A stretch of 64,000 bases of DNA from a virus (IMGVR_UViG_3300021127_000004:1-64000), one strand, 5' to 3'; positions 16,660 through 23,365 are shown, numbered from the stretch's first letter. The notes: generated from the sequence alone by a model not told the origin. Numbers and translations are program-made.

Positions 16660-17016
16660 TTATTTGAATGTTAATTTTAAAAACGCCGCAACGAATTGTA
16701 AAAGCATCAACGCCGAACCATCCCAAGCCGTGTATTGTGCTGATGTCAAAGTATACTGATTTGATTTAACCCTCCTGCCATCATTAGCTATTAAAACATA
16801 GCTAACAGTTACTAAGGTGTCATTTTCACTTGAATAAGACTGATTTGAGCCAGTTATCCCAATAGCTGACAAGGTGTCTTTCTGTTCGGGGAAACCTTGC
16901 CTAAAATAGACTTCGTTTATTCTTGCGGCTGTGCAGCCTGTAATAGTCGTGTCTATTGTTTGAGCCATAACACTTAACGACCCTAATACTAATAATCCTA
17001 ATAATAACTTCTTCAT
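16660..17016 (-). CDS. small fibre-associated protein with signal peptide
   Basis: MKKLLLGLLVLGSLSVMA-Q; Y.L...G.....N.......Y..W pattern. Confidence 0.7.
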   Translation of the reverse strand: MKKLLLGLLVLGSLSVMAQTIDTTITGCTAARINEVYFRQGFPEQKDTLSAIGITGSNQSYSSENDTLVTVSYVLIANDGRRVKSNQYTLTSAQYTAWDGSALMLLQFVAAFLKLTFK

Positions 17017-17027
17017 AATTGATTGAT

Positions 17028-17789
17028 TTATAATCCGTATCTACTTTTTAATGCGTTAAAATTTTGAGCGACTTCTGTTGATGTTAATGCCCTATTATAT
17101 AATTGGCAAACTGATATAAAACCATTATATCCTTGCGTAAGATCTCCCTTATCAGATGCTATTCTTGCATCAAGTCCGCTATTGGTTAGCGTGCTATTTG
17201 TTATAGTACCTGTTGCTTTTGAAACCCCATTAATATATACAGTAATAGCATTGGCGTTATTAGTTACACATATATTAGTCCAATTACTATTTAATATTGA
17301 AACACTTGTTTTTATTTGCGTTAAATTACCGGCATCATTACGTTGCACGAACCCTACTGTAAAACCATCAAAATTACTACCATTGTCTATTTTAAATATA
17401 TCATTGCCGCTAGATGCCCTTTCACAATACATTGCACCACCCGAAGAAGCGGAATTTACATTTACCCATAAACAAACTGTTGAACTAGATAATGCGCTAA
17501 TAATCTGTTTACCAAAAGAGGCATATTGATTTCCATTAAAAGTAAAGTAACCATTTTTTGAAGTATTAAATGTAGGGCTTGAAACTAAAGTAGTATTATT
17601 GCTCATTCCACTTATGTCATACCATAAACTCCCAATACCATTATAAGAATTTGAATTTTGAGCGGTAATGTTTGCTATCAATCCATTTGTTACAATTGGT
17701 GGGTATTGCCCGATTGCTCCTAAAAAGAATCGCATAGGCTGTGCGTTTGCAACGCCAATGAATAATAATAAAATAACTAAATATCTCAT
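17028..17789 (-). CDS. LamG/concanavalin A-like lectin domain protein with signal peptide
   Basis: GL......N.NSY.G.G..WYDISG, W.NICVT, IYING, LYNRALT..EV.QNFNA; signal ending ANA-Q. Confidence 0.85.
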   Translation of the reverse strand: MRYLVILLLFIGVANAQPMRFFLGAIGQYPPIVTNGLIANITAQNSNSYNGIGSLWYDISGMSNNTTLVSSPTFNTSKNGYFTFNGNQYASFGKQIISALSSSTVCLWVNVNSASSGGAMYCERASSGNDIFKIDNGSNFDGFTVGFVQRNDAGNLTQIKTSVSILNSNWTNICVTNNANAITVYINGVSKATGTITNSTLTNSGLDARIASDKGDLTQGYNGFISVCQLYNRALTSTEVAQNFNALKSRYGL

Positions 17790-20246: not shown

Positions 20247-21215
20247 TTATTGAAAAGTTACTGCTGTTGCTGAAAGATTACCAATTTGATTATTACTTAC
20301 TGTATAGTATCCATTATATGTTCCCCCACTTGCATTTGTAAAGGTAATTGAATTATTTAGACTAAATGCAGATGTAGATGGGAATCCATTTACGGTAACA
20401 CTTGTAACTGTACTCGTATTGACATAGAAAAGATACTTTGCGCTGCCTTGTTGTGGGATTGTGTACGAAAGTGAAGTTGCCCCCCCGCTATTATCTTGAT
20501 ATAAGGCTGCCAATATTTCTGCTTGGGTGGGGGTTGTTGTTGCCGAAAATCCCAAATACCTTTTGTTATAAAAGGAAAATATAGTCGTTGCCGTAGCCGT
20601 TTTTGAATCAGTAGTAGTGACTACATTGCTATATGTAGTATTAGTGTTTCTTGTTACTGAAACTCCTTGTGTGCCTGTTACTGTACTACCTGCACTTGGT
20701 TGTGTAAATGTTTGCCCTGTACCTGCTACTACTATTGTAGCAATGGGATTTGTTGCTCCCTGTGTTGATGTAGCCGATAATCTCCCCGCCCCCCAATTTA
20801 AAGTGTAAGACAATGCAGCCCCACTAGCAACGATTTCCTGTGAAAATCCCCCTGTCAAAGTAGCAGTAGGGTTTTGTGTTTGTATCTTAACATACCCCAA
20901 CAAGGTATCATTAAGTGCTGTATGGGTTACAAATAGGCTACTATCTACGGTTGATGAGTTTCGTTTCCATCCGAAACCATTCCAAAACCATTTTGCTGTA
21001 TCCACCCCTGCATTTGCAAAAATTATTTCTGTACCATAATAACGGGCTTTCATATTTGTATCCGTCCTTACTGCGGGGATATAGCCACTATCTGATTTTA
21101 AAAAAGCGTATTTTATCCAACTTGTAGAATTGGTTACGGGATTACCTTGTGGGAGTGATTGCGAAAATCCCCCTACCAAAAACAAACTTAATAATATAGT
21201 TAATAGTATCTTCAT
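20247..21215 (-). CDS. Thr-rich beta structural protein with signal peptide
   Basis: Signal ending GFS-Q; Ig-like T/S-rich body. Confidence 0.7.
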   Translation of the reverse strand: MKILLTILLSLFLVGGFSQSLPQGNPVTNSTSWIKYAFLKSDSGYIPAVRTDTNMKARYYGTEIIFANAGVDTAKWFWNGFGWKRNSSTVDSSLFVTHTALNDTLLGYVKIQTQNPTATLTGGFSQEIVASGAALSYTLNWGAGRLSATSTQGATNPIATIVVAGTGQTFTQPSAGSTVTGTQGVSVTRNTNTTYSNVVTTTDSKTATATTIFSFYNKRYLGFSATTTPTQAEILAALYQDNSGGATSLSYTIPQQGSAKYLFYVNTSTVTSVTVNGFPSTSAFSLNNSITFTNASGGTYNGYYTVSNNQIGNLSATAVTFQ

Positions 21216-21253
21216 TTATTTAATTGTTATTTATTAAGGGTAAACGCGGATTT

Positions 21254-23365
21254 CTATTGATAAACACGTAAGTAAATATTTGAAAATGTCAATAACCCAT
21301 CCGTTAAAACACCGCTTGAATTATATGTATAAAAAGTGAAAATATTTTTATATATTATACCTGATTGCGTTGTAGAAAAAGTACCATTAGTTATTTTATT
21401 GTCGGAGAATGATATATCTGTATTATTCCCACAATATTGGAAGTGAATATTTGTTTTTGTAGATATAGTGCAAGTGTAAGTTCCTGTAGATATATAGTCA
21501 AAATGAACTGAATTAACACTAAATGTATCTATATCATCTACAAATACCTTTTGAATTGTAGGGGCTGTTGTTCCGCTTTGATATAACCTAGCTCTAAATT
21601 CATAATATCCTTTTGAGGGGATATTCGCTTGTACATAATTCTTTACTGCATTAACACTAGGATATAGTATATTGCTTGCGCTATCTGATGGATTTATTGA
21701 TACCGCTAAGTTATTTACGTCTTGGGGGATTAATCCTTGATTTTGCACTGAATATAACCATTCGCCGCTACCTACATATTGTAATCTAACTTGTATGCCC
21801 GAATCTACTGTAATATTATTTGTATAGCTTCCACTAGATGCTGTTGCGTAAAAATAAGTCCCTGTATTAGACCTTAAATTAAAATTGTTATTCAAACTAT
21901 AAGAACCTGTTATATTGTATATGTAATCTGTTTCACCTATTTTTGGGTTAGGATTAGTAAATAGTGAATACCCACTATTTGTAGGGTTTACAAAAGTATA
22001 TTTAGAAGTTGTAGTTATTGTTCCACTTAGGGTTATTACTGTGTCAGTATAAGAAACACTATTTGCTTTTACAAATCTAGTGATAGCTTGTACACTAGGG
22101 TACTTCGTAGTAGAAGCACTATCAGATGTTGCATTGTTAGATAAATTACTTAACGCTTGTGCATATCTGCCTACTGATTGAACTGTTGGGTATTTTGTTG
22201 TGCTGCTACTATCGCTTGCTACATTTGTTGATTTATTAGCAATATTTTCGGGTACATACCCTAAGCCAACATTAAGAATATCCCAATTAGTAGATGTTTG
22301 CCCGGGGCTATTAGTCAATGCCCTTACACTAGACCCTACTACAACCGATGTCCCGCCTAAAGTACCTGCTACTTTTATATACCATAAATCTCCCTTTTGT
22401 ATAGCCCCTGCTGTGCCACTACCCCCCGTTGAAGGGAAAACGTTGCCACTAGCATCGTAACTACCTCTGTCATTAAGAAGTCCTACTACTAGACCTGCGG
22501 CATAGGTTCTTGTGGCTTGTTGTGTAGGGTATAAAGTAGAACTATTTGCAGCCATAGTCCCATCGTTAGAAAGGTTTGATGTAACTTGATAGCCACTAAG
22601 GTTTGGGGCGTGGTTGGTTACATAAGACTTTACTGCGTTTTGTGTAGGTAGAGAATACAATGGGGAACTAGAAAGGGATGTATCATTTGAAAATGCGTTT
22701 ACACCATACCCCCCTAGATTAATAAAAGAACTAGCTTGTAAGGACAATGCTTCTATACTAGAAAAGTTATTATCTCCCGTAAACACATTGTTTTTAGCTA
22801 AATAAGGGATTCTTGTAGTGTCAATAGAACCACCTCCTCCACCTTGATGATTAGTTACATACGATTTTACTGCTTTTTGTGTGGGCAATATTGCATTTGA
22901 ATTACTTGTCATTGCGGTATCGGTAGATATTGATGATATTAATTGACCGCTAGTAAACCCCAAAAAACCATTTATTGTCAATGTATTATAATGCCCGTCT
23001 ATTGATAGGGTAGTTCCTGCATCATTATTATTAATATCTCCTATTGTAGTAATATCTCCATTTATTGATAACCCACTTGCATCGTTGTTGTTACTTACGT
23101 TTATATTAGGGAAAGTATTATTGCCTGTAAAATTATTATTCTTAGCTAAATAAGGTATTTTAGTACTATCAATAAGTTTTGAATTATTTATCTTGTTGTA
23201 GATAATGTTTTCAAACATCCTACCTACTCTTACGGCGGTGTTAGCCCCTGCCCTTGTTTCATTTTTTATTGTATCTGCTTGTGTAATTAATTGGGCATCT
23301 GTTAATTGGGATTTCCCCTCAAAGTAAACAAGCCCCAACAAAACTAATAAAATAACTTTCTTCAT
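21254..23365 (-). CDS. tail fibre-like protein with signal peptide and internal repeats
   Basis: IKNET..ANTA.RVG N-terminal motif, six (L/Y)P(T/S)x.A/S.. repeats, G.YDAS...GD...VAGT..W module; signal ending GKS-Q. Confidence 0.78.
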   Translation of the reverse strand: MKKVILLVLLGLVYFEGKSQLTDAQLITQADTIKNETRAGANTAVRVGRMFENIIYNKINNSKLIDSTKIPYLAKNNNFTGNNTFPNINVSNNNDASGLSINGDITTIGDINNNDAGTTLSIDGHYNTLTINGFLGFTSGQLISSISTDTAMTSNSNAILPTQKAVKSYVTNHQGGGGGSIDTTRIPYLAKNNVFTGDNNFSSIEALSLQASSFINLGGYGVNAFSNDTSLSSSPLYSLPTQNAVKSYVTNHAPNLSGYQVTSNLSNDGTMAANSSTLYPTQQATRTYAAGLVVGLLNDRGSYDASGNVFPSTGGSGTAGAIQKGDLWYIKVAGTLGGTSVVVGSSVRALTNSPGQTSTNWDILNVGLGYVPENIANKSTNVASDSSSTTKYPTVQSVGRYAQALSNLSNNATSDSASTTKYPSVQAITRFVKANSVSYTDTVITLSGTITTTSKYTFVNPTNSGYSLFTNPNPKIGETDYIYNITGSYSLNNNFNLRSNTGTYFYATASSGSYTNNITVDSGIQVRLQYVGSGEWLYSVQNQGLIPQDVNNLAVSINPSDSASNILYPSVNAVKNYVQANIPSKGYYEFRARLYQSGTTAPTIQKVFVDDIDTFSVNSVHFDYISTGTYTCTISTKTNIHFQYCGNNTDISFSDNKITNGTFSTTQSGIIYKNIFTFYTYNSSGVLTDGLLTFSNIYLRVYQ

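Follow-up and report, generated by a model that had tools for sequence, protein, structure and literature searches.

Five consecutive phage fibre and lectin genes with predicted Sec leaders point to a possible periplasmic route for tail appendages

Tailed-phage assembly is usually treated as a purely cytoplasmic process. Phage proteins that depend on the host Sec pathway include spanin lipoproteins, signal-anchor-release and signal-peptide endolysins, superinfection-exclusion lipoproteins and the coat proteins pIII and pVIII of phage Ff; late joining of an appendage is exemplified by the long tail fibres of T4, which attach spontaneously to finished particles, including by in vitro complementation. 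Here, we describe a block of five adjoining fibre and lectin genes, each with a predicted Sec leader, in G000, an uncultured phage from freshwater/lake metagenomes with a genome of 78,699 bp. The window analyzed is the first 64 kb of this genome (IMGVR_UViG_3300021127_000004:1-64000; GC content about 35%). The predicted leaders end before Gln, as in the signal peptidase I substrates of Bacteroidota that follow the Q-rule (Bochtler et al. 2018, PMC5837995; PMC10653852), among which Q-rule proteins of unknown function from Porphyromonas gingivalis prophages have been read as outer-membrane modifiers (PMC10367356). Weighing the evidence below, we lean towards the reading that the five proteins are virion appendages that would mature in the periplasm and join the particle late.

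The five genes (16660–23365) all lie on the minus strand, between leaderless structural genes and the lysis cassette, and are separated by gaps of only 0–38 nt. They encode a 703-aa fibre (21254–23365; leader, residues 1–19, at 23309–23365), a 322-aa protein (20247–21215; leader, residues 1–18), an 818-aa mosaic fibre (17790–20246; leader, residues 1–18), a 253-aa LamG/concanavalin-like lectin (17028–17789; leader of 16 residues, ..VANA before Gln) and a small 118-aa protein, predicted to be exported (16660–17016; leader followed by Gln). Leaders were judged by a rule-based check of the n/h/c pattern together with conservation, not by SignalP. All open reading frames (ORFs) of the 78,699-bp genome were also scanned for hydropathy, with a KD9 of ≥2.9 in a core beginning at residue 3–5 taken as the signature. 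All five block proteins contain such an N-terminal core, and none of the upstream structural-module ORFs does. This KD9 value was otherwise reached only by a u-spanin-like lipoprotein, by a lipobox protein of 99 aa and by three small ORFs of hydrophobic character (54–182 aa; 6978–7169, 59838–60386 and 77693–77857, the last beyond the window), in which the stretch begins at residue 10–12.

Each of the five leaders carries Lys or Arg at positions 2–3 (MK(K) or MR) and comprises 16–19 residues in total, with a core of 11–15 residues. The residues at −3/−1 are all small (Gly/Ser, Gly/Ser, Ser/Gly, Ala/Ala and Val/Ala), and +1 is Gln in all five proteins. A charged n-region, a core of about 7–15 residues and small residues at −3/−1, the marks of a Sec leader cleaved by signal peptidase I, are present in every case. 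If seven leader-bearing genes among 60 are assumed, the chance of five in a row is roughly 1.6e-4. A preliminary description of the window had proposed five consecutive genes with Sec leaders and Gln at +1, leaderless structural genes upstream and holin–spanin–endolysin genes directly downstream. ORFs and N termini were found exactly as claimed, no upstream structural gene scored in the genome-wide scan, and two proteins with two transmembrane domains, a u-spanin-like protein with an LTGC lipobox and a PF00959 lysozyme follow the block. Starts downstream of the leaders, which that description named as a refuting outcome, are unlikely because the genes are so tightly packed and because the 703-aa gene has no in-frame ATG, GTG or TTG just past its leader (...GGG AAA TCC CAA TTA ACA GAT...). 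Two other export fates were considered for the five proteins. A lipoprotein (signal peptidase II) reading was rejected, as +1 is Gln and not Cys; type IX secretion cargo was rejected as well, as Pfam and NCBIfam returned no C-terminal sorting domain in any of the five at E values up to 0.1–1, a divergent domain being conceivable; the C-terminal tips, moreover, recur in phages of Actinobacteria and Proteobacteria.

The leaders are conserved far beyond G000. They are kept in more than 100 homologue clusters despite sequence divergence, with the n/h/c features and the Gln preserved. Nearly all close relatives of the 818-aa protein, on phage contigs of up to 82 kb, have a leader that differs in sequence, shares the same design and ends in ...Q. 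Leader and Gln were present in 90 of 103 relatives of the 322-aa protein, the remainder being truncated or mis-started, and in all 18 relatives retrieved for the 118-aa protein, four of which have the beginning of the leader cut off. Retention by homologues elsewhere, which the preliminary description had left to a survey, is thereby established for these three families. Within the N-terminal region, the Gln (Gln19) alone is invariant in alignment A4, and it is near-invariant in A6 and A1. The middle modules recur in distant relatives of Ala/Gly-rich composition, which we ascribe to phages of other hosts; these start as ordinary fibres and have no leader. On these comparisons, the leaders are real and under selection.

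In the 703-aa fibre, a leader has been grafted onto a module that usually lacks one. Behind the leader come an N-terminal ‘GANTA’ module (QLTDAQLITQADTIKNETRAGANTAVRVG), a shaft in which PTQxAVKxY motifs recur and a C-terminal part that varies. Leaderless proteins, P0059 (MSQLTDAQLITEATVIKTETALGANTANRVG) among them, begin with the mature N terminus QLTDAQLITQADTIKNETRAGANTAVRVG, and alignment with the leaderless P0042/44/52/59/91/95/102/110 revealed the leader as an exact 18-residue N-terminal addition. Cleavage before Gln, as predicted, would restore the N terminus of these relatives, which start at the predicted cleavage point. A scan for the GANTA module gave 260 relatives; among 46 distinct N termini, only G000 and its relative G001 have a leader, and L154 represents a second leader-bearing GANTA lineage. 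Without a leader, the module stands at the protein start in more than 40 distinct phages (start pattern M-x-Q/x-TD...). It matches the N terminus of phrog_38537, ‘tail fiber protein’, and locus L068 has a leaderless orthologue of the 703-aa fibre in the equivalent genomic slot.

The gene immediately upstream of the 703-aa fibre encodes a 265-aa leaderless structural-module protein (23382–24179, minus strand) that ends in DTFDNTFDNTFS (23385–23420). This arrangement recurs: for 42 of the 46 distinct GANTA proteins, from genomes with a GC content of 0.31–0.54, the ORF immediately upstream ends in a [FYW]-D-x-T repeat tail such as FDNTFDNTFN; the fibre encoded after a carrier with an FDxTFDxTF-type peptide has an N terminus of the type ..TDxQL..ETxxGANTAxRVG. 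The carriers are mutually non-homologous: one is a 169-aa family, another the head closure protein Hc1 (phrog_25, 2.5e-12), and others measure 103, 132 and 185 aa. A homologue of the 169-aa carrier that precedes another fibre type is without the tail. We read the FDxTFDxTF tail and the GANTA head as a probable portable docking pair borne by various virion proteins. In G000, the pair would be formed by the peptide at 23385–23420 and the module at 23200–23308, with counterparts at loci L068–L149, and we infer that the 265-aa protein is the docking partner of the 703-aa GANTA module. Both leader-bearing lineages keep the docking motif on a leaderless protein, G000 at the C terminus and L154 internally, as TFDPSFDNTFN within a 405-aa protein encoded two genes from its leader-bearing GANTA gene. 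The dock thus seems to have been kept even though its two halves are expected to end up on either side of the inner membrane. Repeat insertions such as TFDPSFDNTFN may be further docking sites. A homologue of the 405-aa protein (L154:10150–11367) occurs in G000 as a 354-aa protein (57722–58786, minus strand).

The mature parts of the block proteins were examined for virion-type modules, which the preliminary description had ascribed to them. The 818-aa fibre has a lineage-conserved N-module, a hinge (SLSATRNVSTGSIFTYNSSTGAYNLDTTK) and an exchangeable C-terminal tip. Its relatives display at least five alternative tips, one of them PF24146 (K1-lyase_C), and F5/8-type-C domains also occur among them. 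Residues 503–649 recur in leaderless fibres of about 50 phage contigs, and the tip (704–809) is common to Methylophilales phage MEP301 and Arthrobacter phage Jinkies gp36. PDB sequence searches with the 703- and 818-aa proteins returned nothing. The AlphaFold2 model of the 322-aa protein comprises a leader helix, a low-confidence region (17–111) and two β-sandwich domains (112–322) at pLDDT >90; its top Foldseek match in BFVD was ‘Tail fiber protein, Myoviridae sp. ctsK93’ (E 5.6e-9), followed by crAss-like phage proteins, while Foldseek against the PDB gave nothing below 1e-3. The 253-aa protein matches Laminin_G_3 (PF13385) over profile positions 2–151 of 151 (72.9 bits, gathering cut-off 27.6; E 4.1e-20) as well as PHROG virion structural protein families. 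As judged by tblastn, it is related to virion structural proteins of cyanophages S-PM2, S-RSM4 and Syn1 and to two leaderless structural proteins (220 and 233 aa) that Flavobacterium phage immuto encodes in its fibre block. The LamG domain, the modules common to leaderless fibres and the match of the 322-aa model to predicted tail fibres together support an assignment of the mature parts to virion-type or fibre modules.

The 118-aa protein belongs to a family of about 105–135 aa whose mature N terminus is Q[TV][IV]DTT and in which a second motif, DT[ILA], is also conserved. Its gene lies between the fibre gene or genes and the holin in most related phages that were examined. Its AlphaFold2 model (pLDDT 80) is a four-stranded sheet with two helices that matches only unnamed small phage proteins, and the best hit of a VIA-wide search (Z 4.9) was not significant. 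Two giant ankyrin-repeat proteins among the matches were set aside as probably spurious, having no other link to the family. The 118-aa protein is possibly a fibre partner or chaperone. Like the N-modules of the two larger proteins discussed below, the N-regions of the 253- and 118-aa proteins were only seen with a leader.

Periplasmic exposure of the five proteins was probed through their O-glycosylation sequons. The Bacteroidota motif, D-(S/T)-(A/I/L/V/M/T...), and its periplasmic setting have been described (PMC8698959); sequons were counted as D[ST][AILVMT], with the expectation taken from shuffled sequences. Observed counts exceeded expectation in the 818-aa (9 versus 3.1), 703-aa (7 versus 3.0) and 118-aa (3 versus 0.5) proteins, the last family having two conserved D-T sites, while the 253-aa LamG protein has none; taken together, the five block proteins contain 21 sequons where about 8 are expected. 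The u-spanin-like protein (5 versus 0.9) and a phage endonuclease (3 versus 0.8) are also enriched. The leaderless structural proteins of G000 show no excess, and the leaderless lysozyme is nominally over (2 versus 0.4). The ratio was 2.47 in 33 homologues with leader and Gln versus 1.17 in 115 leaderless homologues, and 0.5–0.8 for three control motifs. The excess in leader-bearing homologues suggests periplasmic exposure and hence lends indirect support to export. On sequon content, the leader-bearing proteins fit the Bacteroidota general O-glycosylation substrates, with the glycan itself putative. G000 carries adjacent glycosyltransferase genes of families GT25 (1.4e-6) and GT11 (4.7e-16) at 63436–65612, across the window end (L155:437–2613), followed by genes for NinG, an NAMPT-like protein (6.9e-47) and a phosphoribosyltransferase; the two transferases could bear on the glycan.

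Comparison across phages showed how the block evolves. G000 and G001 share 98% identity across their structural genes as far as a recombination break within the 703-aa gene, about 172 codons into the coding sequence. Past this break, the G001 block is reshuffled into proteins of 352, 393, 752 and 125 aa, all leader-bearing. Each N-module remains with its virion lineage, whereas the C-terminal tips pass between podo-, myo- and other types of virion with one lysis cassette in common; plain linkage to the upstream genes could also yield the pattern seen for the N-modules. In the myovirus contig G002 (84% complete, with sheath, tube, tape measure and hub genes), the sole fibre-like ORF after the baseplate genes has a leader. 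Phages whose virion modules differ widely, this myovirus among them, have nearly identical lysis cassettes downstream of their leader-bearing fibres.

Comparable gene arrays were found in cultured phages of Cellulophaga baltica. In phi18:3 (KC821620.1), gp085, gp086 and gp087 begin with a leader followed by Gln (...SFGYSQ, ...GVSAQ and ...GLNAQ, followed by Val, Thr and Thr, respectively) and lie just upstream of genes for small transmembrane proteins and a glycosyl hydrolase. All three are annotated as ‘structural protein, annotation based on experimental MS/MS proteomics analysis’. Phage phi46:3 (KC821622.1) has five such leader-plus-Gln genes in a row (gp079–gp083). The searchable papers contain no comment on these leaders. 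Raw evidence for Sec-routed tail fibres is present in public phage records, though no description of them was found in papers; what comes nearest is the account of Q-rule proteins in P. gingivalis prophages (PMC10367356).

The lysis cassette of G000 (14774–16642, minus strand) was assigned from sequence features and PF00959. It encodes a 63-aa holin-like protein with two transmembrane domains (16451–16642), a second such protein of 60 aa (16186–16368), the u-spanin-like protein of 174 aa with lipobox LTGC and a C-terminal transmembrane domain (15539–16063), a 99-aa protein, and a soluble, leaderless 154-aa lysozyme (14774–15238; Phage_lysozyme PF00959, 2.4e-33), all on the minus strand. Further downstream lies a gene for a 267-aa DNA/RNA non-specific endonuclease (Endonuclease_NS, PF01223, 6.7e-15; 11213–12016, minus strand). 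Its KD9 is low in the first 35 residues (1.68), with a hydrophobic stretch further in, then ..SWGQ followed by His, while its homologue in the myovirus contig L013 begins directly with the leader (MKQTLLFFSWLVIVVNSWGQ). Because of its own sequence and this leader-initial homologue, we read the endonuclease as a probable exported phage nuclease, and the long N-terminal extension in G000 may reflect a mis-called start. A 143-aa protein with leader and Gln (..TISNAQ before Ser) lies between the major capsid and sheath genes of L013 (1735–2166) and appears to be another exported protein within a structural module. In the early region of G000, a 99-aa protein with a lipoprotein-type leader (5980–6279, minus strand; ..SVAIGC, lipobox AIGC) is a candidate superinfection-exclusion or envelope lipoprotein.

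In the model that we favour, the five genes would encode distal appendages (the primary fibre, two further fibre or receptor-binding proteins, the LamG lectin and a small partner) that have been re-routed through the host Sec system. Late in infection, the precursors would be exported and cut before Gln by signal peptidase I; host glutaminyl cyclase could then convert the Gln to pyroglutamate, and the host general periplasmic O-glycosylation system could modify the D-S/T-x sequons. The appendages would fold and perhaps pre-assemble in the periplasm, while capsid and tail are built in the cytoplasm as usual. When the holin opens the inner membrane, a step needed anyway because the lysozyme has no leader, the two compartments would mix inside the still-intact outer membrane, which would briefly confine particles together with periplasmic proteins. 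Fibres would then snap onto the particle, the 703-aa protein through its GANTA module gripping the FDxTFDxTF C-terminal peptide of the 265-aa protein, and, more speculatively, the 322-, 818-, 253- and 118-aa proteins may have pre-assembled with it in the periplasm. By our own estimate, not computed, such a peptide-in-module dock could close fast at the expected concentrations.

We thus infer export, cleavage and joining and judge it somewhat probable that the five proteins are appendages of the virion which, once processed, snap on upon holin triggering or at lysis, their virion membership being supported by the phi18:3 analogues annotated from tandem mass spectrometry and by the docking peptide kept on a leaderless neighbour. 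Several observations weigh against it. To our knowledge, no tailed phage assembles parts across the inner membrane, our literature searches found no paper describing exported tail fibres, and the interval between holin triggering and rupture is short. The evidence for export, cleavage and attachment is indirect: the phi18:3 proteins have no detectable sequence similarity to the block proteins and are analogous, not homologous; detection by mass spectrometry in a virion preparation is no proof of attachment; and the 2.5-fold sequon excess comes from counts on related proteins that are not phylogenetically independent and in part reflects a repeated conserved hinge motif (NLDTTK). For the 818- and 322-aa proteins, the N-module was only ever seen with a leader, which leaves either protein without a known docking site. 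Loci L068 and L083 carry a leaderless primary fibre beside leader-bearing proteins, so that the latter could be accessory there. Finally, the fibre block of the well-studied crAss001 (gp21–gp26) has no leaders, nor has that of Flavobacterium phage immuto, so leaders on fibres are not general in Bacteroidota phages. The periplasmic maturation put forward in the preliminary description stands in part: selection on the leaders, the invariant Gln and the sequon excess favour export, and analogy and the retained dock favour virion membership.

The strongest competitor, which we consider rather unlikely, is that the proteins are exported and never part of the virion, acting as fibre-derived lectins or adhesins on the infected envelope or after release at lysis. 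They could mask or bind receptor glycans, in superinfection exclusion or to keep progeny off debris, aid envelope breakdown or serve as soluble binding factors. Such roles would suit the membrane that separates exported proteins from the cytoplasmic particle, the position of the block next to the lysis genes and the mixed blocks of L068 and L083, and they have parallels in the P. gingivalis prophage proteins read as outer-membrane modifiers (PMC10367356) and in the Endonuclease_NS, whose export would mean that this phage uses the periplasm for non-virion functions too. The true adsorption device could then be an 864-aa leaderless protein of G000, for which Pfam and PHROG gave no annotation and an ESM Atlas search no usable match. 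However, fibres orthologous to the 703-aa protein occupy the canonical slot in leaderless form, and leaderless proteins of both leader-bearing lineages still carry its docking peptide; the only fibre candidate of myovirus G002 has a leader, and the phi18:3 analogues were detected in virions. Nor do the five proteins have a type IX C-terminal domain or a lipobox that could direct them to the cell surface. For decoy or masking action, a leaderless paralogue that shares the binding domain would be required; none was found in G000, L068 or L083, so the decoy version of the envelope-acting alternative raised in the preliminary description gained no support. Less probable still, and in our view improbable, is that the leaders are not used for export, with the proteins joining the particle in the cytoplasm or while tethered to the inner membrane, and the leader retained as an anchor, otherwise proteolysed or only partly effective (dual localization). 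The membrane between the partners would then pose no obstacle, Sec could be saturated by strong late expression, and tethering could concentrate fibres at the assembly or exit site. However, cores of 11–15 residues have the length of leaders and are too short to span the membrane, the strict small-x-small junction before an invariant Gln is unexplained unless signal peptidase I cuts there, the sequon excess implies periplasmic exposure, and the 703-aa gene has no alternative start after its leader. An annotation artefact, with true starts downstream of the hydrophobic stretch or a chance resemblance to leaders, is very improbable: the starts are taken from ORF calls only, but the packing, the conservation of leader features through amino-acid change in the >100 clusters, the low chance of a run of five and the leaderless orthologues that start exactly at the predicted cleavage point all speak against it.

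A bolder extension of virion membership, about which we are distinctly more hesitant and which we offer as a possibility, is that these phages form part of a Bacteroidota phage community with two-compartment virions. Capsid and tail would be cytoplasmic, while the receptor-binding gear would pass through export, pyroglutamate capping and host O-glycosylation (with the glycan possibly retouched by the phage GT11 and GT25), then be clipped on via the FDxTFDxTF/GANTA dock within seconds, after holin triggering and before the outer membrane ruptures.

The wider genome places G000 at a distance from cultured phages. Its terminase and portal have distant matches only, and the closest cultured relatives by TerL (20–25% identity) are the Flavobacterium ‘elemo’ podophages and Cellulophaga phage phi46:3. 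Against cultured phages, megablast found no DNA match for the five-gene block, and tblastn none for the 703- and 322-aa proteins; PHROG, Pfam and NCBIfam searches returned nothing for most G000 structural proteins. No RNA run was found that contains the window. No relatives turned up in two scans of bacterial genomes, which therefore name no host; the only host hints are the source names of two relatives of the 322-aa protein, a Ferruginibacter metagenome-assembled genome and Mucilaginibacter paludis. Elsewhere in the window, an ORF of 2835 aa (46371–54878, minus strand) has no Cys and no PHROG match, and the matching region is highly divergent in G001, though neighbouring structural genes are 89–98% identical. 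Two ORFs of 558 and 99 aa (60386–62371, minus strand) have N termini that, by eye, resemble GroEL/GroES-type chaperonins; cpn10 is annotated near the terminase genes of phi18:3 and phi46:3. The translation of an ORF at 10–285 (plus strand) consists of about ten tandem copies of MFGTMLRYR, implying a 27-nt DNA tandem repeat where the contig begins. One locus with a fibre homologue, L007 (IMGVR_UViG_3300033141_003285), gave only very short ORFs under table 11 and may use another genetic code.

If the proposed route is correct, tailed-phage assembly would include a lysis-gated step, the first to cross a membrane, and these would be the first host-glycosylated phage fibres in this phylum. Fibres could carry host pyroglutamate and O-glycans that affect stability, antigenicity and host range, and expression in Escherichia coli, sequence-based prediction of host range and phage engineering would have to consider the leader and the modifications. 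The FDxTFDxTF/GANTA pair is a simple, widespread and testable candidate for a snap-on connector that would in itself help to understand and exchange fibres.

Set beside known systems, the block combines features otherwise found apart. With Q-rule substrates it shares the Sec leader and a Gln exposed at +1, and the P. gingivalis prophage proteins are likewise phage-encoded; those, however, are host proteins or prophage accessory genes, whereas the cargo in G000 is the fibre block of lytic-type phages. Among Sec-dependent phage proteins, the Ff coat proteins come close as virion parts that use host export and are assembled from the membrane, yet none of these proteins is a tailed-phage appendage, and Ff virions are extruded through the envelope instead of being released by lysis. 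The long tail fibres of T4 also join last and can do so outside the normal cellular context, but they are made and attached in the cytoplasm, with no membrane between the partners. Leaderless GANTA tail or neck fibres have the same N-terminal module, gene order and upstream C-terminal FDxTFDxTF peptide, and differ in that more than 40 distinct examples have no leader, which is confined to the G000/G001 and L154 lineages. The Cellulophaga phages phi18:3 and phi46:3 (Pachyviridae) differ in their marine host, compared to the lake-derived G000, and in that some of the corresponding proteins are called pectate lyase in related records. They are alike in being phages of Flavobacteriia with consecutive large leader-plus-Gln proteins encoded before small transmembrane proteins and a cell-wall hydrolase and, with such proteins already in their virion proteomics, these cultured phages make the puzzle directly testable.

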